Positions 15,322 through 55,019 of a stretch of DNA of 64,000 nucleotides are shown piece after piece (the stretch's first letter is position 1; every line of letters begins with the position of its first letter). A program made the translations under genes and the position numbers. The stretch is from Candidatus Nomurabacteria bacterium. GTDB lineage: Bacteria > Patescibacteriota > Saccharimonadia > Saccharimonadales > JAGQNJ01. Location: assembly GCA_023898625.1 (NCBI GenBank), contig CP060231.1, forward strand, positions 737,890-801,889. Direction: 5' to 3'. The notes beneath the pieces were generated by a model. The model was not told where the DNA came from, did no database searches, and saw only the letters and a program-made list of their open reading frames with translations.

Positions 15322-15351
15322 TTGACAGCAGGAGTTTTTTTAAGTTATAAT
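15322..15351 (+). promoter_or_regulatory. Putative sigma70-type promoter of nusA
   Basis: TTGACA (15322-15327), an 18-nt spacer, then TATAAT (15346-15351). Confidence 0.55.
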
Positions 15352-15364
15352 GTTTGTTGTAAAC

Positions 15365-15388
15365 GTCGACCGACAGGTCGGCTTTTTT
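15365..15388 (+). terminator. Intrinsic-terminator-like hairpin in the nusA 5' leader (candidate attenuator)
   Basis: A 7-bp stem GTCGACC/GGTCGGC (one G-U pair) with loop GACA, followed by T6 (15383-15388). It lies between the promoter and the nusA SD/ATG. Confidence 0.6.
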
Positions 15389-15415
15389 CATAGTTTAGTT
15401 AAGAAAGGTAGAAAT

Positions 15416-16570
15416 ATGGATTTAGATGTAAAACAAATGGCTATAGCACTAAGAGCTATCGCAGAAGAGAAGAACTTGCCAGAAGAGACAGTGCAAGAAA
15501 TAGTCGAACAAGCACTCGCGGCTGCTTACAAAAAAGATTACGGGGACAGAGAGCAAGAAGTAAGAGTTAGTGTAAATTTACACACAGGTGATGTTGATGC
15601 ATACGTCACTAAAACCGTTGTCGATAAAGTAGAAGATGAGCAAACCGAAATTTCATTGACCAAGGCTCAAGCTATTCGCAAGAATATTGCAGTTGGCGAC
15701 ACACTAGAGCTACATCAAGATGTTTCAACATTTGGACGAGTCGCAGCTCAGACAGCCAAACAAGTTATATTACAGCGTTTACGTGAAGCTGAAAGAGAAA
15801 TTATTGTCAACGAATATCAAGACAAAATTGGAACAATCCTTAATGGTATTGTGGCCAGGATAGAGGGTCGTTTGATTCGTGTTGATCTTGGAAAGGCACA
15901 AGGAATTTTACCAGCAAGTGAGCAGATTCAAGGTGAACACTACTATCCAGGGCAAAGATTAAAAGTATTCTTAAAAGACGTAGAACGTGGCTTAAGAGGG
16001 CCACAGCTAGTTTTGTCACGGGGAAATAGTGAATTTATTGAATGGTTGTTCAGGGCAGAGGTTCCAGAAATGGAAAGCGGTGCTGTTGAAATTAAGGGTA
16101 TTGCTAGAGAGGCAGGGGTTCGCAGTAAAATCGCAGTTTCAAGTACTGTTCAAGGTGTAGATCCGGTAGGAACATTTGTTGGTGGTCATGGAACTCGTGT
16201 AAATGCTGTGATGAGTGAAGTTGGCGAGCAAGAAAAAATTGATATTGTTATTTGGGACGATTCCACGAAAGAGTATATTATTAATGCATTAAGTCCAACA
16301 AAGGTCAGTAGTGTAGATATTGACGAGGGACGCAAAAAAGCTACAGTAAAGGTGCCCGAAGATCAGTTAAGTATTGCAATTGGTAAAAGTGGTCAAAATG
16401 TTAGACTTGCTAGTAAACTTACTGGTTATGAAATCGACATCGTAGGAACAAAGGAAGAGCAGAAGGAAATCAAAGAAGAGCCCAAACAACCACCAAAGTT
16501 AAAGAAGAAAAGTGAACTCGAGAGTAGTTTACTAGAGGCAATAGAAGAACACGGCGAAGAAAGTAATTAG
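15416..16570 (+). CDS. nusA: Transcription termination/antitermination factor NusA
   Basis: It contains S1 and two KH domains (IGKSGQNVRLASKLTG). I chose the start at ATG 15416 (MDLDVKQ...), which is preceded by AAGAAAGG. The ORF-track start at 15350 lies inside the -10 box and spans the leader hairpin. Confidence 0.9.
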   Translation: MDLDVKQMAIALRAIAEEKNLPEETVQEIVEQALAAAYKKDYGDREQEVRVSVNLHTGDVDAYVTKTVVDKVEDEQTEISLTKAQAIRKNIAVGDTLELHQDVSTFGRVAAQTAKQVILQRLREAEREIIVNEYQDKIGTILNGIVARIEGRLIRVDLGKAQGILPASEQIQGEHYYPGQRLKVFLKDVERGLRGPQLVLSRGNSEFIEWLFRAEVPEMESGAVEIKGIAREAGVRSKIAVSSTVQGVDPVGTFVGGHGTRVNAVMSEVGEQEKIDIVIWDDSTKEYIINALSPTKVSSVDIDEGRKKATVKVPEDQLSIAIGKSGQNVRLASKLTGYEIDIVGTKEEQKEIKEEPKQPPKLKKKSELESSLLEAIEEHGEESN

Positions 16571-16593
16571 CACTCTTGACTTGCGAGTGCTAA
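16567..16593 (+). promoter_or_regulatory. CIRCE element (HrcA operator consensus) overlapping the clpC promoter
   Basis: TTAGCACTC-TTGACTTGC-GAGTGCTAA is an exact match to TTAGCACTC-N9-GAGTGCTAA. TTGACT in the spacer lies 18 nt upstream of TATACT (16600-16605). Confidence 0.8.
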
Positions 16594-16656
16594 TTTAGTT
16601 ATACTAAAAACAGCGATTTTGCGCTACATATAATTTAACGAGGGTATAACTAAAAA

Positions 16657-19134
16657 ATGCCACCAAATTCATCTGATTTTCAAGAGATCCTGAATCATTT
16701 AACCGAAAATGCTCTGCGAAGCTTACAGCAAGCTGACGGTATTGCTCGTGCTTCAGGTAGTCCGTATGTTGGAACACAGCATATTCTTTTGGGTATATTG
16801 GCACAAGAAGCATCTATCGGCGCAAAAATGTTACAAGATAGCGGAGTAACACTCGATAGGGCTAGACTTGCCTTAAATCTGACACCAAAAGCCACTGTCA
16901 TAAATATGGGCGCCAAAGGTTTGAGCGAAACAGCAAAGCTGACATTAAAAATGGCTTACGAAACAGCTCAGGATTACAGCCAAGAGTTTTGTGGTACAGA
17001 GCATATTCTTTATAGTATCCTAAGCCAGAAGAACTCTAGAGCAACTGTTTTGCTTCGAGATATGAATACAAATGTCGATAACTTAATAAATGGCCTGGAA
17101 CAATTTTTGAATAGGCAACAATATGAAGATTCAGCAAATCCGAGTGGAGGACGTGTACGTACAAAGCAAAGGCGAAAGACTGCACTCGATTTTTTCGGGA
17201 CAGATCTTACTCGGTTAGCAAAACAAGGGAAGCTAGACCCAGTGATTGGGCGCGAAGCACAGATTAGGCGAGTCATTACAATTTTAAACCGACGAACAAA
17301 AAATAACCCAGTATTAATTGGCGAACCTGGCGTAGGAAAGACTGCTATAGTAGAAGGCTTAGCTCAGAGAATTGTTAATGAGGATGTGCCGGATACCTTG
17401 CTAGACAAGCGAATTGTTATGTTGGATTTGACAAGTATGATTGCCGGAACAAAATATAGAGGTGAATTTGAAGAACGCTTAAAAAAGGTCATGCAAGAAC
17501 TCGAAAATGATAAAAAAACGATTATCTTTATTGATGAGGTACACTTGATTGTAGGGGCGGGTTCGGCAGAAGGCTCACTTGATGCCGGCAATATATTAAA
17601 GCCAGCTCTTGCTCGAGGCAAAGTTCAGGTTATCGGTGCAACAACCACAGATGAATATACTAAGTATATTGAAAAGGACAGTGCTTTAGAGAGGCGATTT
17701 CAACCGGTACAGGTTCCGCAAACTAATCTTTCAGAAACTGTAGCGATATTAAAGGGGCTACGTAAGCACTATGAATCTTTTCATAATGTAAAGATTCCTG
17801 ATGAAGTTATAGAAGATACTGTTAATCTGGCAGATCGATATATAAATGACAGGTTTATGCCAGACAAAGCTATTGATCTACTTGATGAAACTGCAGCACA
17901 TCTGCGAATAGACAAAGGCAGAACACCACCAGAGGTGCGACGCTTAAAAAATGAACTTAAACTTGTGAATTCTAAAATTGATGATGCCGTAGATAATGAG
18001 GATTACGAAAAGGCGGCGCAGTTTAAGCAACGTGTTAGCCAAATTGACGATGAGTTAAAGAAGTTGCAATCAGCATCAAAAAGCGTTAATGAGCTTACAA
18101 TGACAAGCGATGACGTTGCTGAGATTGTGGCACGAATAACAGGTGTTCCTGTGCAAAAAGTAATTAGGTCAGAAGCTAAATATTTGCTCAATCTAGAAAG
18201 TAATTTATCGCGTTTTGTAATTGGTCAAGAAGAAGCAGTTCATGCTGTTTCTAGGGCTGTACGACGAAACCGATCGGGTGTAAGCAGTGCCAAGCGTCCC
18301 ATTGGATCTTTTGTATTCTTGGGTCCTACTGGGGTTGGCAAGACCGAACTTGCTAGGGTATTGGCTCGAGAGTTTTTTGGCTCAGAATCTGCTTTAGTAA
18401 AAATCGACATGAGCGAGTTTGGCGAACATCATAATGTATCTCGTTTAGTGGGAGCCCCGGCTGGATATGTAGGGTACGATGATGGAGGTCAATTGACAGA
18501 CAAGATACGTCGTCAACCGTACAGTGTGGTTTTGTTTGACGAGATCGAGAAAGCTCACCCCGATGTATTGAATATGTTATTGCAACTACTTGAAGATGGG
18601 CATTTGACAGACTCAAAAGGCCGTAAGATTGATTTTACAAATACTATTGTGATAATGACTAGTAACATCGGTGCTGACAAACTCCAAAAAGAAGTTTCTC
18701 TAGGTTTTGATGCAAATAGCAAGATTGATTTAAGTGATTTAGACAAACTCCATGAATCAAACAAGGATAAAGTTCTTGATCAGCTTAAGAAGATGATGCG
18801 CCCAGAGTTACTAAATCGTATCGATAAGATTATTGTATTTAGGGCTTTAACAAAAAACAATATTTCCAAAATATTAGATTTACAAGTGAACGAGCTCAAG
18901 AATCGTCTAGCAAAACAGGGCATAAGCGTAAAACTAACTACATCTGCTCGAAATTATTTATTAAATCATGGTTATGATTCACTAAACGGCGTAAGGCCAA
19001 TGCGCAGACTTTTACAAGATACTCTTGAGGATCATATCGCTGTAGAGTTGATTAAGGGTTCATACGACAAAGGGTCGATAGTTGAGGTCGGCACCAAGAA
19101 TCGTGAACTAGCATATTCTGTAATATCTGAATAG
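16657..19134 (+). CDS. clpC: ATP-dependent Clp protease ATP-binding subunit ClpC
   Basis: 825 aa. It has a double Clp_N repeat, two AAA+ modules (GEPGVGKT and GPTGVGKT), a short UVR-type middle domain ([13 protein letters not shown]) and an LGF loop. Confidence 0.9.
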
Positions 19135-19169
19135 CTAATTTAAGCTTTAGTGATATATAATTAATGTAT

Positions 19170-20129
19170 ATGAAGTTCGCGCGTCGGATCGCTAGCCTAC
19201 TTGTTACGTTAGTTTTAATAGGTGCAATATTAATAACTTGGTTTGCAAGAGAAGATATCTATGACTGGTGGGTGTTACGCAATTATACTCCACCCCAGGA
19301 AGTAGCATCGTTGGCTGATGAAACTACTATGACTTCTCATGCTCGTCGAATATTTTATGTAAATCATCCTGATATTGCTCAGGCTTCACAATTTAATCAG
19401 GCATGTAGCCAAGAAACTTCTATTGTTATCGGATGTTATATCCCTGGTAAGGGTATCTACATTTTTAATATAACAGATCAACGACTTGCTGGAGTCAAGC
19501 AAGTAACCGCTGCCCATGAAATGCTACATGCTGCCTACGATAGGCTATCCTTGTCTGAGCAAAGACATGTCGATGCGCTAACAGAAGCTGAATATGATAA
19601 ATTAACCAATCAAAGAATTAAAGACAATGTCGAAAAATATCGCTCTCAGGATCCTTCGGTTGTATCAAACGAACTTCATTCTATATTAGCAACAGAAGTA
19701 AGCGATCTTTCGCCGGAATTGGAAAATTACTACAAACAGTATTTTACTGATCGTCAAGCAGTGGTTAGATATTCAAATCATTACGAAGCTGAATTTACTA
19801 ATCGGCAACAACAAGTTGCAAATTACGACAAACAGCTAGCAGAGTTAAAAGGCTCGATAGATGCTGGTAAAAATGAGTTAAATCTGCAGTTGAATGCATT
19901 AAAGGCTGAAAAAAATAGACTAGATAGCCTGATAAGCCAAAATAGAATAGCCGAATATAATAATGCGGTGCCTGGTTTTAATGCCAATGTTGGTTCATAT
20001 AATGTACTGGTACATAAGGTCGATAACGATATAAACACCTATAATCAAATCGTCCAATCTCGTAATAATATCGCAGGAGAGATGCAAGATTTAGCAAACT
20101 CAATAGACAGCCGACCACAAAGTTTTTAA
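19170..20129 (+). CDS. Hypothetical membrane-anchored protein with an HExxH motif and a C-terminal coiled coil
   Basis: It has an N-terminal TM helix (LLVTLVLIGAILITWF), AAHEMLHAAY and an Asn/Gln-rich heptad region. I prefer the ATG at 19170 over 19164 because TATAAT (19156-19161) ends 8 nt upstream. Confidence 0.5.
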   Translation: MKFARRIASLLVTLVLIGAILITWFAREDIYDWWVLRNYTPPQEVASLADETTMTSHARRIFYVNHPDIAQASQFNQACSQETSIVIGCYIPGKGIYIFNITDQRLAGVKQVTAAHEMLHAAYDRLSLSEQRHVDALTEAEYDKLTNQRIKDNVEKYRSQDPSVVSNELHSILATEVSDLSPELENYYKQYFTDRQAVVRYSNHYEAEFTNRQQQVANYDKQLAELKGSIDAGKNELNLQLNALKAEKNRLDSLISQNRIAEYNNAVPGFNANVGSYNVLVHKVDNDINTYNQIVQSRNNIAGEMQDLANSIDSRPQSF

Positions 20130-36721: not shown

Positions 36722-36748
36722 TTAGCACTCTTGACTATTGAGTGCCAA
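36722..36748 (+). promoter_or_regulatory. CIRCE element overlapping the clpP promoter
   Basis: TTAGCACTC-TTGACTATT-GAGTGCCAA matches the consensus at 17 of 18 arm positions. TTGACT in the spacer lies 18 nt upstream of TATACT (36755-36760). Confidence 0.75.
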
Positions 36749-36769
36749 GTTCTGTATACTAGATACTAT

Positions 36770-37381
36770 ATGAATATCAAATCTACAAAATCTATTAAAG
36801 ATTCCGTGCTAGTGCCAACAGTTATTGAATCAGAGGGTCGTATGGAGCGCGCCTTTGATATATATTCTAGGCTGTTAAAAGATCGGATTATATTTTTAGG
36901 TACGGACGTTAATGAGCATACTTCAAACTTGATTGTTGCTCAGATGCTGTTCCTTGAAAACGAAGACCCAAAAAAAGATATTAAGTTTTACATCAATAGT
37001 CCTGGCGGCAGCGTGTATGATGCCTTGGCAATCTATGACACAATGCAATACGTTAAATGTGATGTTCAAACAGTTGGTATTGGTGTTCAGGCTAGTGCTG
37101 CAGCCTTTTTGCTGAGTTCAGGGGCAAAAGGCAAGAGGTTTTTGTTACCACATTCTACTGTGATGATACATCAACCATCAGCTGGCACCCGAGGTAAGGT
37201 TACGGATATGGAGATTGACCTCAAGGAAGGCCTTAGACTAAAACAACTATTGAATCAGATCATGGCCAAAAATACTGGTCAGACAGTTAAGAAAATTGCT
37301 CAAGATGCGGAACGTGATTTCTGGATGGACGCACAAGAAGCCAAACAATACGGTCTTGTCGACAAAATACTAACAACCTAA
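36770..37381 (+). CDS. clpP: ATP-dependent Clp protease proteolytic subunit
   Basis: ClpP core (LVPTVIE...[19 protein letters not shown], catalytic GxQASAA and IHQP). I chose ATG 36770. The ORF-track TTG start at 36731 lies inside the CIRCE spacer/-35 box. Confidence 0.9.
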
Positions 37382-37567: not shown

Positions 37568-40279
37568 ATGAAAAAGATACTAAATAAACTATCTATAACA
37601 AACAAAGTAAAAATTATAAACTATCTAGTACTATCCCTACTATTCACTATAACTACCCTTATACCATTAACTACCAGCACAGCCAATGCTACCCCACCAG
37701 ACTCTTGTTTTAGTTTTAACTCTGGTACTAATACCATAGAAGACTACTACGATAACGAAAACAACGACTCAGGCCAACCAGCTTGTCCTAAGGCTGTAGA
37801 TATACCTAGTACTATTGGAGGCAATGCAGTCACCACCATCGGCAACTCTGCATTTTATTCCAACCAACTCACCTCCGTCACCATCCCTAGCTCGGTAACC
37901 ACCATCAGCAACTATGCTTTCCAATACAACCAACTCACCTCAGTCACCATCCCGGGCTCTGTCACTACCATCGGTGACTATGCCTTTTATTCCAACCAAC
38001 TCACCTCCATCACCATTCCTAGCTCAGTTACCTCCATCGGCGACTATGCATTCCAAGGCAACCAACTAACCTCCGTCACCATAGCAGGCAATCCCACAAC
38101 CCTCGGTACAAGGATACTTGAATATAACCCCATAACCTCAATCTCATACAATGGCACAGCCTATACCGATACCAGTACACTTGGTGAACAATGTTTTGAC
38201 TTTGATTCCGGTACAGGCACTATAAACGACTACATATTTGCAGATCTAAACCTAATTAAAAGCAGTAGCATTGCTTGTCTAGACAGAAGCGTAGATATAC
38301 CAAGCGCTATAGGTGGGGTTGGTGTCGAGCATATAGGTGCGGTTGCATTCTGTCAAAAAAGTCTGACCAGTGTGGTACTTCCAGCGTCACTACTAACTAT
38401 AGAGAATGGTGGCTGGGGCTGTGGCGGTGCTTTCCGAGACAACCAACTCACCTCCATCACCATCCCTAGCTCAGTTACCACCATCAGCAACTCTGCTTTC
38501 TATGGTAACAAACTCACCTCCGTCACTATTCCTAGCTCGGTCACCACCATCGGCGACTATGCTTTTTCTAACAACCAACTCACCTCCGTCACCATCCCTA
38601 GCTCAGTCACCACCATCGGCGACTATGCTTTTTCTAACAACCAACTCACCTCCGTCACCATCCCTAGCTCAGTCACCACTATCGGCGACCATGCTTTTTC
38701 TTACAACCAACTCACCTCCATGTCTATTCTCGGAAGCCCCACCACACTAGGTAGCGGTATATTAATATCTAACCCCATAGAATCTATTACCATAAATGGT
38801 AATACCTACACTAGTTCATCACCTAATACTGATGCTTGCTTTGAATTTGATACAGGTAATGGCACCATTAATGGATGGCTCCAAGCAGACTTAACCACGG
38901 CTAGAGATGGAGGCTCTGCTTGTCTTAACAAATCAGTCACTATCCCTAACACTATTGGTGGTACATCAGTAACCACTATCGATAGCGGTGCTTTTTCTTC
39001 CAACCAACTCACCTCCATCACCATCCCTAGCTCAGTCGCCACCATCGGTAGCGAGGCTTTTTTTTTCAACCAACTCACCTCCGTCACTATTGGTAATGGG
39101 GTGGCTTCGTTAGATCCTTCTGTGTTTGCGTTCAATTCAGACTATACATTTGCAGATTTTGAGCTAGAAATGCAACAACTGGAGCAACAACACAAAGCTA
39201 CTTGGGCAGACCCTAACAACCCAACACCTGCCGAACAACAAGCTGCTGTGCAAGAAATGTATCTCCTTTACTACAAATTCTACACCTCTGCCTGGTATGT
39301 CCAGGTGTATACAGCTGACCCATCTAACCCTAATAACTTGCAAGATGCTTCTACTTCTATGACCGAAGCAGATACTTTTGAAGTTGATGTAAACGGTAAC
39401 GGCAACACTACTGACCCAGTCTTTTTTGGCGGTCACCTCATCAACCCAGCCTACGCTCAAATCAACTATCAGGATCAATCAGGTAACACCATCTCCCCCT
39501 CTACCAAAGTAACAGGCTATAACACAGACAACAGCACCAACCTAACAACCTACCTAGCTAAAGACAACCCTACCAGTAATATGAGCTTCTACCACAAAGT
39601 AGGTAGTACCGCTCATCTACCTACTCCCCCAAGTATTGCAGGCTACAGTATAGTATCTACTCCTCCTAGTACCCTAACCCTAAATAACACAGGAGCTAAC
39701 GAAATAACCTATACCTACAAAATAGACACTAACTCTGACTCCGACTCCGATGGCATCCCTGACTCCGTAGAGACTAATGCCCCCAACTCTGGTGATGCTA
39801 ACAATGACGGTATAGCCGATAGTACCCAAGCTAACGTAACTAGCTATCTAAACCCAGTAACTAATAACTATGTAGTACTCCAAACATCTAGTGCATGTAG
39901 TATTACTACCACTACTACAACTAGTGAAGATAGCCTATCTACTAAAGACTCTGGCTATGACTACCCAGTAGGCCTAACTAACTTCACTACTGACTGTAAT
40001 ACCCCAGGCTTTACAGCTACTATAAACCTCTACTACTACAACCTAGCTAGTAATAACTATGTTCTCAGAAAACATAACCCTAACAATAACTCTTTCCTTA
40101 CTATAGCTAACCCTACACTAACTAACCTAACTATAGACAATAAACCAGTAACCAAAGTAACCTACCAAGTTACTGACGGACAACAACTAGACATAGACAA
40201 CACCACTAACGGAACCATAGTAGACCCAGTAGGCCTAGCTACATTAGCTGTAGGGAGTCCTAATACGGGGTTGAGATAA
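37568..40279 (+). CDS. Secreted BspA-type leucine-rich-repeat surface protein with TSP3-like Ca-binding repeats
   Basis: 903 aa with a signal peptide. It has three super-repeats, each starting CFxF(D/N)xGTxTI...AC...V(D/T)IPxxIGG and followed by 22-aa LRR_5-type units (QLTSVTIPSSVTTIGDYAFxxN). Next come DSDSDGIPD...DANNDGIAD and a beta-rich C-terminal domain. Confidence 0.8.
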   Translation: MKKILNKLSITNKVKIINYLVLSLLFTITTLIPLTTSTANATPPDSCFSFNSGTNTIEDYYDNENNDSGQPACPKAVDIPSTIGGNAVTTIGNSAFYSNQLTSVTIPSSVTTISNYAFQYNQLTSVTIPGSVTTIGDYAFYSNQLTSITIPSSVTSIGDYAFQGNQLTSVTIAGNPTTLGTRILEYNPITSISYNGTAYTDTSTLGEQCFDFDSGTGTINDYIFADLNLIKSSSIACLDRSVDIPSAIGGVGVEHIGAVAFCQKSLTSVVLPASLLTIENGGWGCGGAFRDNQLTSITIPSSVTTISNSAFYGNKLTSVTIPSSVTTIGDYAFSNNQLTSVTIPSSVTTIGDYAFSNNQLTSVTIPSSVTTIGDHAFSYNQLTSMSILGSPTTLGSGILISNPIESITINGNTYTSSSPNTDACFEFDTGNGTINGWLQADLTTARDGGSACLNKSVTIPNTIGGTSVTTIDSGAFSSNQLTSITIPSSVATIGSEAFFFNQLTSVTIGNGVASLDPSVFAFNSDYTFADFELEMQQLEQQHKATWADPNNPTPAEQQAAVQEMYLLYYKFYTSAWYVQVYTADPSNPNNLQDASTSMTEADTFEVDVNGNGNTTDPVFFGGHLINPAYAQINYQDQSGNTISPSTKVTGYNTDNSTNLTTYLAKDNPTSNMSFYHKVGSTAHLPTPPSIAGYSIVSTPPSTLTLNNTGANEITYTYKIDTNSDSDSDGIPDSVETNAPNSGDANNDGIADSTQANVTSYLNPVTNNYVVLQTSSACSITTTTTTSEDSLSTKDSGYDYPVGLTNFTTDCNTPGFTATINLYYYNLASNNYVLRKHNPNNNSFLTIANPTLTNLTIDNKPVTKVTYQVTDGQQLDIDNTTNGTIVDPVGLATLAVGSPNTGLR
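38444..38707 (+). repeat. In-frame tandem repeat, 4 x 66 bp, units 2-4 nearly identical
   Basis: Units start at 38444, 38510, 38576 and 38642. Units 3 and 4 differ at only about 3-4 positions. Confidence 0.9.
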
Positions 40280-51622: not shown

Positions 51623-52714
51623 ATGCAACAGATATATACTGAATCATTCTTGAGGGGTTATGCTCGTAAGACTATGAGATCTATACAAGACATAACCCAA
51701 CACCCATATAAACATGTAATTGAGCAAAGACTCAAGATAATTCAGTTCTATGATGATTTCGGGGAACAAGCCACCAGACAAGCTTTTAGCGTAAGTAGGA
51801 GCACTGTGTTCAGCTGGAAGAGGCGTCTAAAGGATAACAATGGCTCACTCAGATGTTTAGCTCCAAAGAGCACTGCACCAAAACACAAACGCAAGCGAAT
51901 GGTAGATATGCGTATTACTAACTTTATTCTAGAACAAAGAAGCTTACACCCTAAGCTAAGTAAAGATAAGCTAGCCGTATTACTCAAAGATGAGTGTACA
52001 GCTTGGAATCTAAAACCACCTTCGGCATCTACCGTAGGTAGAATCCTCAAAGACCTTAAGTTTCAAGGCCTATTACCAAAATATACCAGGTTAACCGTTT
52101 CAGGTGCTACCGGCAAACTACTTGAGAAACAAAGTCGTAAGCCAAGACTCAATAAACAACGCAGGAATGGTTATCAGCCTGAGCAACCAGGAGATATGCT
52201 ACAGATAGACACTATTGTTAAGTTTATAAACGGTATACGCCGTTATGTACTTACAGCAGTAGATTACAAAGGTAGATTCGGCTTTGCCTATGGCTATACT
52301 AGCCCCAGTAGTACCAACGCAGCAGACTTCCTGAACAAACTGCAAGCTGTTACCCCATTTGAGATCAGACGAGTGCATCATGACAATGGTAGTGAGTTCT
52401 ACAAACACTTCATAAGAGCCTGTGATGAACGAAACATTGAACAGCTCTGGAACTATCCCAAAAGACCTAAGAATAACGGAATGGTTGAAAGATTTAACCG
52501 TAGCATCCAAGAAGAGTTTATAGACTGGAACCTAGATAATCTAGCCTATGACCTTGAGGATTTCAATAATTCATTGATGGACTGGTGTATATGGTATAAC
52601 ACAAAAAGACCACATTATGGACTTGGTTTAAAAAGTCCAATGCAGTACTTACTAGAAGTGTTACAATTAAGCCAACAGGAGTCCAGAATGTTATGGACGG
52701 ATACAACTACTTGA
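51623..52714 (+). CDS. DDE-type (integrase core, rve) transposase, IS481-family-like
   Basis: 363 aa with an N-terminal HTH (STVFSWKRRL). The catalytic region runs LQIDT... HHDNGSEF ... NGMVERFNRSIQEEF ... YNTKRPHYGLGLKSP. Confidence 0.85.
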   Translation: MQQIYTESFLRGYARKTMRSIQDITQHPYKHVIEQRLKIIQFYDDFGEQATRQAFSVSRSTVFSWKRRLKDNNGSLRCLAPKSTAPKHKRKRMVDMRITNFILEQRSLHPKLSKDKLAVLLKDECTAWNLKPPSASTVGRILKDLKFQGLLPKYTRLTVSGATGKLLEKQSRKPRLNKQRRNGYQPEQPGDMLQIDTIVKFINGIRRYVLTAVDYKGRFGFAYGYTSPSSTNAADFLNKLQAVTPFEIRRVHHDNGSEFYKHFIRACDERNIEQLWNYPKRPKNNGMVERFNRSIQEEFIDWNLDNLAYDLEDFNNSLMDWCIWYNTKRPHYGLGLKSPMQYLLEVLQLSQQESRMLWTDTTT

Positions 52715-52805
52715 CAAATGTATGAATTAATGCTAATGTTAAGTGAATACAAAATTTAGATACATTTAGATATTTGTATTTATGTTAACGATTAAGGAGA
52801 AATAT

Positions 52806-53387
52806 ATGTTAGAGAAAAGAGAGATACTAGACCTTGAATTATTTGAAGGTGCTGGTGTTAAGCATGATCAAATTGCATTAATTAGTGCGGCAACTGACGC
52901 AATTGTTGCATGCAGTGATTGGGCAGAAAGACAGAAAGTTGCCGTCGCAAGTTTATTAGCTAGTTGCGTCACTATTGATAGTGATATACTGGGTGGAGAT
53001 GTTGATTTTGATGATTCAGCCTGGCAAGACACTGTGTCTAGACTAGTTGCTGCTGGAGTTGTTGATGCTTCAGCGTATTACGAAGAAATAGACAGTTCTT
53101 GTTTATTTGATGAGGATAGTGATCCTACAACAATTTCAAGAACTAAGCTTGAAAGTATACTCTCCAGCGCAGAAGAATATAAACGGCAACAAAGTATCGT
53201 TCCTGAGGGAGATGACGAATCAGAGGACTATTCTGACGATTTTCTAGAACTTCTTGCTGATTCACGGGGCGACGATATTGTTGAATCGCGAGACTATACT
53301 AGTGGCGACGAAGAATCTAACGGAGAAGATGATCTCGATGATGATCAACAAAATGATGTCGTTATCATTGACGGCGTAGAATTTTAG
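52806..53387 (+). CDS. Hypothetical, extremely acidic protein (193 aa)
   Basis: I chose the ATG at 52806 because AAGGAG lies 7 nt upstream. The C-terminal half is packed with Asp/Glu runs (GDDESEDYSDD, GDEESNGEDDLDDDQQND). No known domain recognised. Confidence 0.55.
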   Translation: MLEKREILDLELFEGAGVKHDQIALISAATDAIVACSDWAERQKVAVASLLASCVTIDSDILGGDVDFDDSAWQDTVSRLVAAGVVDASAYYEEIDSSCLFDEDSDPTTISRTKLESILSSAEEYKRQQSIVPEGDDESEDYSDDFLELLADSRGDDIVESRDYTSGDEESNGEDDLDDDQQNDVVIIDGVEF

Positions 53388-53429
53388 TTATTTGTATATT
53401 AAAATTGTTAAATTTTGGATATCTGATCT

Positions 53430-55019
53430 ATGAAATCGAACCCTGAGCTTATTGATGAGGTTTTTGAGTATGTATCCCCAATAGCAGTTGCTTACGGTGG
53501 TGATATATCATCTGTCATGTCTTCACTGGCTTTAACTAAGTCGATTCTTCAAACCGCTCATCCAGACAGAGGTTTTGAATATTCTGATTCATTGGTTAAT
53601 GCAAATAGGCTATATTCGTCAATTAAAGACTCAAACAAAGTACAACACGAGATTCTAACAGAATGTACCGAAGACACAGTGGAGCCTCTCGGTAAGTTAC
53701 GAAAAGCGGATGTTTTGAACCAAAATATTGATGTATTGATTGAGTCAATAACTAAAGAAACCAGACAAGATACACATGACGTATCTGATACTTCTCACTA
53801 CATTGTCCCAAGTGATGTTGATATAGACGAAGACAGTAGTGATCATGATCTTTCCTTTTTACTGAACACAAAGATTATCGATCAGTTAAAAGAACTAGAT
53901 GGTGAGGATCTTAATTTTGTGATTAAACAATTAAGGAAATATACTTTAAAAAATCAAAATTTAGAAATTCCGGATATATCTAGTAGTCAATGGTCAGTAC
54001 TATTTGATAGAATTCAAAATGGTGATGTTTCATGGGAATCTCTAAATAAGTCGAATGGAGAGGTCGCTAGCGTGCATCTTAAAAACGCAGAAGATCGAGT
54101 GTTACCTTTTTTGAGTTTATTTAGTCCAGAATCAAGCTATATTTTCCCAAAAAACTGGTATAGGTCCTTCAGTGGTTTGGTATATGCCCCCATGTTTGAT
54201 ATTTATGATTACGAGGATCACCAAACAAGAATTGCGCGTAATAAAAAATCATATTGGCAAAACTTTAAAATCTTAAATGTACAGAATGGCATTGTTGTAG
54301 ATGAAAGACAAATAGATTACGGGGACAGAGAGTCAATTCAACTTGTAGATGGTTTGCCAACAAAGAAGCACCGATCGATAATGGAATTAGTTAATGATGT
54401 GCTAAAGGAGATAGGTAGCGACGATAGCTTTTTGGTCACAAATTCTGAAAACGGAGACCAAATCGGTCCTGCAAATTTTGTATTTTTTGTCAAAAATCAA
54501 ATAGCTACGGTAGTCGGTACTGACTTGCAACATGCTAAACACACCATAAATAACAAGATACAGCGTGAGGATGTGGCTATTGATGACGGAGTATATATGA
54601 TTAAGGCTGGTAAACCACAAGGTGCTACTGAATATGATAAACAAAACTTACCTCTCGCTCTGATAAAATTAAAAGAGATGAAAATTCCAAAACGAAATAG
54701 CTACAAGGGTTTCGCTCTGGTAGGTGAGTGCTCATATGTTCTTGATGCTAATGACGATGTTTCAACAATGATACGCAATAACCAGATTATGGATGTATGT
54801 TTAGATCAGAAACCTGACACCGAACAAATTAACGGAAGGCAGAGAATAGAAGTTATGTTAAAAATCTTGTTACAGGATTCAATATCTAAAGTAACTCAAA
54901 GCTTATTAATGAAACGTGATTATATGAAGGTAAGTAGAATGTTGGCGGTTAATAAGGATAATCAGATGATCAATATTAATGAGCTTGACCCATATAGGCT
55001 TACGTTTATTAGCGAGTAA
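53430..55019 (+). CDS. Hypothetical protein (529 aa)
   Basis: A long uninterrupted ORF on the same strand with codon usage like the core genes. I saw no Walker, HExxH, DxD or other motif. Confidence 0.6.
   Translation: MKSNPELIDEVFEYVSPIAVAYGGDISSVMSSLALTKSILQTAHPDRGFEYSDSLVNANRLYSSIKDSNKVQHEILTECTEDTVEPLGKLRKADVLNQNIDVLIESITKETRQDTHDVSDTSHYIVPSDVDIDEDSSDHDLSFLLNTKIIDQLKELDGEDLNFVIKQLRKYTLKNQNLEIPDISSSQWSVLFDRIQNGDVSWESLNKSNGEVASVHLKNAEDRVLPFLSLFSPESSYIFPKNWYRSFSGLVYAPMFDIYDYEDHQTRIARNKKSYWQNFKILNVQNGIVVDERQIDYGDRESIQLVDGLPTKKHRSIMELVNDVLKEIGSDDSFLVTNSENGDQIGPANFVFFVKNQIATVVGTDLQHAKHTINNKIQREDVAIDDGVYMIKAGKPQGATEYDKQNLPLALIKLKEMKIPKRNSYKGFALVGECSYVLDANDDVSTMIRNNQIMDVCLDQKPDTEQINGRQRIEVMLKILLQDSISKVTQSLLMKRDYMKVSRMLAVNKDNQMININELDPYRLTFISE

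Follow-up and report, generated by a model that had tools for sequence, protein, structure and literature searches.

A CIRCE operator built around the −35 hexamer of the clpC promoter, and a probable HrcA regulon that includes ClpCP in Saccharibacteria

We focus here on a stretch of 64,000 nucleotides from the genome of a Candidatus Nomurabacteria bacterium (assembly GCA_023898625.1, contig CP060231.1, positions 737,890 to 801,889), hereafter called the window, and in particular on an inverted repeat that lies where nusA ends and the promoter of clpC begins (Table 1). The repeat, TTAGCACTCTTGACTTGCGAGTGCTAA, reads TTAGCACTC-TTGACTTGC-GAGTGCTAA; its arms are exactly 9 nt apart and match, at every position, the controlling inverted repeat of chaperone expression (CIRCE), the operator of the repressor HrcA, for which the consensus is given as TTAGCACTC-N9-GAGTGCTAA (PMC3842655). 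With up to three mismatches allowed, the window holds two such sites, against a mean of 0.04 in dinucleotide-preserving shuffles of the same DNA. The spacer between the two arms opens with the −35 hexamer of clpC, and the −10 hexamer follows 18 nt later; the pair, of the sigma70 type, scores 10/12 in a consensus promoter scan and the promoter lies 51 nt before the clpC ATG. The first-pass annotation of this DNA had described a perfect CIRCE and a −35 hexamer enclosed in its spacer, and both descriptions hold. Transcription of clpC is predicted to start near 16612, about 7 nt after the −10 hexamer, and CIRCE would then span approximately −45 to −19 relative to that start. The product of clpC has two AAA modules besides a Clp_N domain; its middle region is short and bears a UVR-like motif, and residues 682-684 form an LGF loop, which we take to be the equivalent of the ClpP-docking tripeptide; this combination of features marks the protein as ClpC-type rather than ClpB.

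The first-pass annotation had also proposed a search for further CIRCE sites. Run in the window, this search revealed a second one, which had been overlooked, approximately 20 kb from the clpC site and directly in front of clpP. It reads TTAGCACTC-TTGACTATT-GAGTGCCAA, that is TTAGCACTCTTGACTATTGAGTGCCAA, with its only mismatch in the right arm GAGTGCCAA, and it ends 21 nt before the clpP ATG. The clpP site shares the layout of the clpC site, down to the −35 hexamer that opens the spacer, and both components of ClpCP thus carry one operator-promoter module. Since the −10 hexamer of clpP ends only 9 nt before the start codon, the clpP mRNA is probably leaderless. Very short distances of this kind recur elsewhere, as in many relatives only 16-21 nt separate the end of CIRCE from the start codon of clpC or clpP.

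Table 1. Coordinates of the clpC and clpP operator-promoters, their genes and other features of the window
Feature	Coordinates	Strand	Remarks
CIRCE operator of clpC	16567..16593	.	left arm 16567-16575, spacer 16576-16584 (9 nt), right arm 16585-16593; 18/18 match
−35 hexamer of clpC, TTGACT	16576..16581	+	first 6 nt of the CIRCE spacer
−10 hexamer of clpC, TATACT	16600..16605	+	18 nt after the −35 hexamer
clpC	16657..19134	+	ClpC-type Hsp100 ATPase; 825 aa; ATG at 16657
nusA	15350..16570	+	open reading frame, upstream neighbour of clpC; NusA_N, S1 and KH domains
nusA stop codon, TAG	16568..16570		within the left arm of the clpC CIRCE
CIRCE operator of clpP	36722..36748	.	between tig and clpP; 17/18 match, 1 mismatch in the right arm
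clpP promoter	36731..36760	+	−35 TTGACT 36731-36736, 18-nt spacer, −10 TATACT 36755-36760; read from sequence
clpP	36770..37381	+	203 aa; CLP_protease domain; ATG at 36770
Promoter motif at the first nusA ATG	15322..15351		TTGACA, 18 nt, TATAAT; 12/12; first ATG at 15350
Open reading frame between clpC and radA	19164..20129		321 aa
BspA-type leucine-rich-repeat protein	37568..40279		903 aa; directly downstream of clpP
Interval between EF-G and EF-Tu	51623..55019		integrase (rve) 51623-52714; open reading frames 52782-53387 and 53430-55019

The relatives of the window are metagenome-assembled genomes of Saccharibacteria, or Saccharimonadales. Because a scan of a genome collection, described below, had selected on the motif itself, we also took samples that are blind to it, in which loci were fetched by protein similarity alone. 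Within 350 nt upstream of clpC, 77 of 80 such metagenome loci (72-77% identity) carry CIRCE with three mismatches or fewer; 41 of these sites are perfect, 19 have one mismatch, 14 have two and 3 have three, and two of the three loci that lack a site are on contigs with only 113 and 173 nt of sequence before the gene. All six clpP relatives sampled in the same manner (78-88% identity) carry CIRCE with at most one mismatch, at a distance of 19-47 nt upstream of the ATG. The first-pass annotation had stated that its interpretation would be contradicted if related genomes lacked the motif upstream of clpC, and the relatives show the opposite. The arms are near-invariant among them, while the flanking positions carry little information besides the promoter boxes, and the leader between operator and clpC varies from 16 to 227 nt.

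The position of the clpC element at the 3′ end of nusA suggests another role, in which the palindrome would act mainly in RNA, as a terminator or as a 3′-end stabilizer of nusA. The inverted repeat can indeed fold as a 10-bp hairpin (−13.9 kcal/mol, z = −2.4), and nusA is the upstream gene at 60 of the 77 clpC relatives. The stem, however, is followed by TTTAGTTATACT, without a U-tract, and the terminator scan made no call at this site. Furthermore, relatives differ widely in how far CIRCE lies from the nusA stop codon (1 to more than 2000 nt), whereas the register of the operator to the −35 and −10 hexamers is fixed, and an identical element stands before clpP, dnaK, dnaJ, hsp20 and hrcA behind unrelated upstream genes. 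A terminator would also have no need of exact CIRCE arms, yet the arms are near-invariant. We thus rejected an intrinsic nusA terminator, and consider a primary role of the palindrome in RNA to be highly improbable. The overlap of the left arm with the nusA stop codon, which the first-pass annotation had correctly pointed out, is incidental given the variable distance between the two in relatives. In an Rfam scan of the window, tRNA was the only RNA family returned.

The relation between operator and promoter, on the other hand, is closely maintained. TTGAC occupies position 1 of the spacer in 67 of the 77 motif-blind clpC sites, TTGCA or TTGAT does so in 6 more, and in all 73 of these a TANNNT box follows 16-19 nt downstream. 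The genome-collection set, for which the −10 box was absent from the search pattern, gives the same picture, with TANNNT at 16-19 nt in 85 of 86 Saccharibacterial sites (59% at 17 nt and 31% at 18 nt) and at other offsets in approximately 4%. At five loci, TTGAC is shifted to the 3′ end of the spacer (position 5), and the −10 box is found correspondingly further downstream; three of these are clpC loci (L181, L183 and L185) and two are clpP loci (L207 and L219). Such co-variation of the −35 and −10 boxes is what a genuine promoter predicts, and no other observation at the sequence level argues more strongly that operator and promoter form a single unit.

To which genes, then, is this unit attached? 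The genome-collection scan covered one genome per species and required CIRCE arms with TTGAC opening the spacer; it returned at least 120 loci, about three quarters of them from Saccharibacteria, and among the loci listed the downstream genes include dnaK, clpC (41-75% identical to that of the window), clpP, an Hsp20-family gene and a short HrcA homologue. We then rescanned the Saccharibacterial loci free of the promoter pattern, for CIRCE with two mismatches or fewer, and scored 201 sites. The gene behind the operator is clpC at 101 of these, dnaK at 44, hrcA at 23, clpP at 12, hsp20 at 8, dnaJ at 7 and groES at 1; of the remainder, two are cut off by the end of the locus and three belong to clpC but are separated from it by a long leader, and no site in these loci stands before a gene of another kind. 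The reverse check gives a consistent result, as every clpP (11), every hsp20 (7) and the sole groES in the same loci have the operator, and 28 of 29 hrcA copies are preceded by CIRCE with three mismatches or fewer, the 29th being cut off by the end of its locus. Six dnaK genes have no site of their own, and all six are on loci that also bear an hrcA site, which is consistent with hrcA-dnaK operons.

Two further observations were made in the course of these scans. Some Saccharibacterial dnaK promoters have tandem operators, with CIRCE over the −35 hexamer and a CIRCE-like repeat just after the −10 hexamer (L016, L031, L075, L101, L122 and others), and there are 44 dnaK sites for approximately 28 dnaK genes. 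Outside Saccharibacteria, three Chloroflexi loci (L020, L021 and L033; Dehalococcoidia, Tepidiformales and HR29) have a CIRCE with TTGAC in its spacer before a small zinc-ribbon open reading frame with CxxC motifs and an FmdB-like appearance, and this gene may be an unrecognized member of the HrcA regulon in Chloroflexi.

The Saccharibacterial hrcA-like genes behind CIRCE encode proteins of 225-245 aa, in which Pfam identifies HrcA_DNA-bdg (PF03444) and the C-terminal part of the HrcA domain (PF01628, approximately 215 profile positions, of which only positions ~80-107 to 215 match). The N-terminus aligns with residues 16-110 of Thermotoga maritima HrcA (1STZ) at E=3e-18, and in a profile search against PDB sequences (1.5e-22) the winged-helix domain alone aligns. 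The 240 best database hits from two HrcA searches are all of the short form (226-259 aa), and those with a named source are labelled Saccharibacteria or Patescibacteria; examples of this mini-HrcA include L167:1541-2260, L058, L102, L118 and P0001-P0359, while canonical HrcA has approximately 340 aa. In some relatives, repressor and protease genes are neighbours. On a 303-kb contig (L167) whose ClpC is 75% identical to that of the window, the order is nusA, CIRCE, hrcA (239 aa), grpE, CIRCE, clpC, radA, and at L179 hrcA likewise lies between nusA and clpC, directly upstream of the latter.

In terms of structure, an AlphaFold model of the short HrcA (predicted local distance difference test score, pLDDT, 77.8) consists of a winged helix, a flexible linker and one GAF-like alpha/beta domain. 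Foldseek returns 1STZ as the best match of this model (E=1e-11), with approximately 90 target residues unmatched, followed by two-domain IclR-type regulators. HrcA of T. maritima is said to contain an inserted dimerizing domain, and the model suggests that Saccharibacterial HrcA has lost this insert. When short and long HrcA are aligned with MAFFT or BLASTP, the gaps scatter and give no precise placement of a deletion.

Taken together, we consider it likely that the element in front of clpC is an HrcA operator built into a sigma70-type promoter, and that a lineage-wide HrcA regulon includes ClpCP. The two 9-bp arms would place an HrcA dimer on either side of the −35 hexamer, from where it would keep RNA polymerase off the −35 hexamer and the spacer. 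Repression would thus occur by steric occlusion, in which contact of the sigma factor with the enclosed −35 hexamer is blocked and clpC is held off. Upon protein-folding stress, HrcA activity would be lost and the clpC promoter freed; in B. subtilis, it is GroEL that reportedly maintains HrcA in its active state. The clpP gene would be governed by the identical module, which the lineage also appears to use at dnaK, dnaJ, hsp20, groES and hrcA. That one module is common to clpC, clpP and the chaperone genes argues that Saccharibacterial ClpCP belongs to the HrcA heat-shock regulon.

Several points weigh against this interpretation. First of all, HrcA binding, promoter occlusion, stress induction and the transcription starts of clpC and clpP are deduced from the layout of the DNA. 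Second, hrcA is found neither in the window nor within 10 kb beyond either end. Among the open reading frames of the window, Pfam and NCBIfam identify no hrcA, ctsR, mcsA, mcsB, groESL, dnaK or grpE, and the 10-kb flanks, which were inspected through look-ups of the terminal proteins, contain none of these either, nor any other chaperone gene or further CIRCE. Proteins of the window recur on metagenome contigs and on a closely related assembly, JAXLZW010000001.1 (GCA_046350715.1, 939,581 bp), which shares 98-100% identity with the window in the regions of overlap; among the HrcA matches listed, none lies on this assembly. Third, Saccharibacterial HrcA is approximately 100 residues shorter than the canonical protein and scores 178.5 with TIGR00331, below the NCBIfam cutoff of 197.2, and its biochemistry may therefore differ. 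Finally, in co-culture transcriptomes of TM7x, the clp genes TM7x_03020 and TM7x_02110 increased jointly during stable symbiosis, whereas the majority of chaperones had their higher levels at initial encounter. This pattern does not look like simple co-regulation of clp and chaperone genes, yet these were not heat-shock experiments, and the direction of the changes is ambiguous.

The second and third of these points could be accommodated if a different regulator, and not HrcA, bound the sites, or if the sites were relics left after the loss of hrcA, with clpC and clpP constitutive in this genome. The lineage HrcA is, after all, atypically short, and 84 kb of this genome were inspected without encountering hrcA. 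In a genome of 0.94 Mb, however, these 84 kb represent approximately 9%, and absence from so small a share says little; we infer that hrcA is present in this genome. Without selection, relics would decay, yet the clpC and clpP sites of the window are both intact (0 and 1 mismatch, respectively). Furthermore, hrcA with a CIRCE of its own occurs throughout the lineage, in the short form that all of the best hits share, and the winged-helix domain of this protein is clearly HrcA-like. Binding by another regulator, or decay after loss of the repressor, thus seems to us very unlikely.

The TM7x data, in which clp genes and chaperones move in opposite directions during symbiosis, also bear on a third possibility, namely that HrcA is only one of two inputs and that clpC and clpP are in addition under the control of a second, unrecognized regulator or sigma factor. 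There are precedents for such an arrangement, as clpP of Streptococcus salivarius (reportedly; Chastanet and Msadek 2003) and hsp1 of Lactobacillus plantarum (PMC3842655) are under dual control of CtsR and HrcA. The leaders of 16 to 227 nt between operator and clpC in relatives could hold other signals. No second conserved motif, however, was seen around the operators, whose flanks are low in information apart from the promoter boxes, and boxes of the CtsR and ClgR types occur in the window at chance level only. The CtsR heptad box RGTCAAANANRGTCAAA gives 13 matches at 3 mismatches where 10.6 are expected, none of them near 16567 or 36722. Actinobacterial clp promoters carry a ClgR-type palindrome with a CGC-N5-GCG core, and this core gives 7 matches at 1 mismatch where 6.6 are expected, none in either promoter region, although this test for ClgR is a weak one. 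On these counts in the window, both CtsR and ClgR were rejected as candidate regulators, and we regard control by two inputs as unlikely.

These results also bear on the proposal in the first-pass annotation that HrcA and CIRCE have taken over the Clp protease genes in a rewired regulon. Its observation that neither ctsR nor mcsAB precedes clpC is correct, nusA being the upstream gene, and the proposal is sustained insofar as CIRCE stands at both clpC and clpP, is kept in nearly all relatives sampled blind to the motif, and in the window is unaccompanied by CtsR or ClgR boxes. The replacement of an ancestral CtsR that it implies is not borne out; CtsR may never have existed in this lineage.

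A more far-reaching version of the HrcA reading can also be formulated. Here, the whole quality-control network, consisting of DnaK, DnaJ, GrpE, GroES/EL, Hsp20, ClpC and ClpP, would be run by one mini-HrcA of approximately 235 aa that lacks the dimerizing insert and whose operator is fused to the −35 hexamer in a fixed register. We put this forward tentatively, as a possibility that we rate below even chance. Since a mini-HrcA would be without the usual dimerizing insert, it may dimerize and sense stress otherwise than in the model of titration by GroEL; it may, for example, do so via DnaK, or via ClpCP, itself a member of the regulon. If true, the class I heat-shock regulon of chaperones and the class III regulon of proteases would be united in a single mini-HrcA circuit.

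The window contains several other features that touch on the genes discussed here. A perfect 12/12 sigma70-type promoter motif overlaps the first ATG of nusA, and the NusA_N domain begins only at residue 33 of the open reading frame; given the overlap, the true start of nusA is probably further downstream, or else the transcript is leaderless. Between clpC and radA lies an open reading frame without a Pfam or NCBIfam match, which is absent from L167, where radA directly follows clpC. The BspA-type leucine-rich-repeat protein downstream of clpP has internal repeats, and among strains whose clpP is identical it varies in length between fragments of 170-201 aa and products of more than 734 aa. 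Further away, between EF-G and EF-Tu, an integrase of the insertion-sequence type is accompanied by two open reading frames without a family match; the closely related NCBI assembly has a 799-aa open reading frame in the same interval, and this segment of the str operon region is an insertion that varies between strains.

Saccharibacteria and other members of the candidate phyla radiation (CPR) have tiny genomes with few regulators and almost no experimentally characterized transcription control. In our literature searches, no paper connected either CIRCE or HrcA with Saccharibacteria, Patescibacteria, CPR or TM7. The regulon proposed here is a concrete one for such organisms, with a well-defined operator, a set promoter geometry and a short list of targets, and it would mean that the link between CtsR and Clp, held as a rule for Gram-positive-like bacteria, is not general. 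In annotation, CIRCE could be used as a marker of promoters and stress genes in CPR genomes, and the operator-promoter module could serve as a heat-inducible expression element in those Saccharibacteria that have lately become amenable to genetics. For heat-shock biology in general, the consequences are modest, since Mollicutes and lactic acid bacteria already offer examples of HrcA acting on other AAA+ genes.

It is useful to compare this system with those in which the same parts are known. In Firmicutes, clpC and clpP belong to CtsR, and the genes are arranged in the order ctsR-mcsA-mcsB-clpC-radA-disA. The Saccharibacterial system resembles the CtsR regulon in that clpC and clpP are regulated, in the heat-labile repressor that we propose to act on the promoter, and in the linkage of clpC to radA, which is kept; it differs in that, in the window, no ctsR, mcsA or mcsB lies upstream of clpC, no heptad CtsR box is present, and the operator is CIRCE. 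The class I regulon of B. subtilis and other bacteria, on the other hand, has an identical operator, and the Saccharibacterial relatives share with it an autoregulated hrcA linked to grpE and dnaK and, as we would predict, a repressor acting on a sigma70-type promoter. The targets, however, include clpC and clpP, which in Bacillus are members of the CtsR (class III) regulon. In B. subtilis, CIRCE reportedly lies between promoter and start codon, whereas the operator here straddles the −35 hexamer, and HrcA of this lineage has approximately 235 aa, not approximately 340 aa. Textbook HrcA regulons consist of the dnaK and groE operons (PMC3842655).

Closer parallels are found where HrcA acts beyond these operons. 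HrcA of Mollicutes acts on lon as well as on dnaK and clpB, and at the promoters of the latter two CIRCE is present in tandem copies (PMC5138195). Like Saccharibacteria, Mollicutes are genome-reduced bacteria with HrcA as a stress regulator, CIRCE on AAA+ genes beyond dnaK and groE, and tandem CIRCE as at the Saccharibacterial dnaK. They belong to a different phylum, however, their AAA+ targets are clpB and lon rather than clpC and clpP, and the fixed geometry with the −35 hexamer in the spacer is undescribed there. Among lactic acid bacteria, clpL of Lactobacillus gasseri is reported to be HrcA-regulated (as cited in PMC3192767), and, together with clpP of S. salivarius, it provides an example of CIRCE and HrcA acting on clp genes. 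In these species single genes are concerned and CtsR is also present, whereas the window has no CtsR box near clpC or clpP, and in Saccharibacteria the ATPase and the peptidase genes both carry the operator throughout the lineage. The operator and the regulator are thus already well known, and what is new is a probable lineage-wide regulon with ClpCP and the enclosure of the −35 hexamer in the spacer of the operator.

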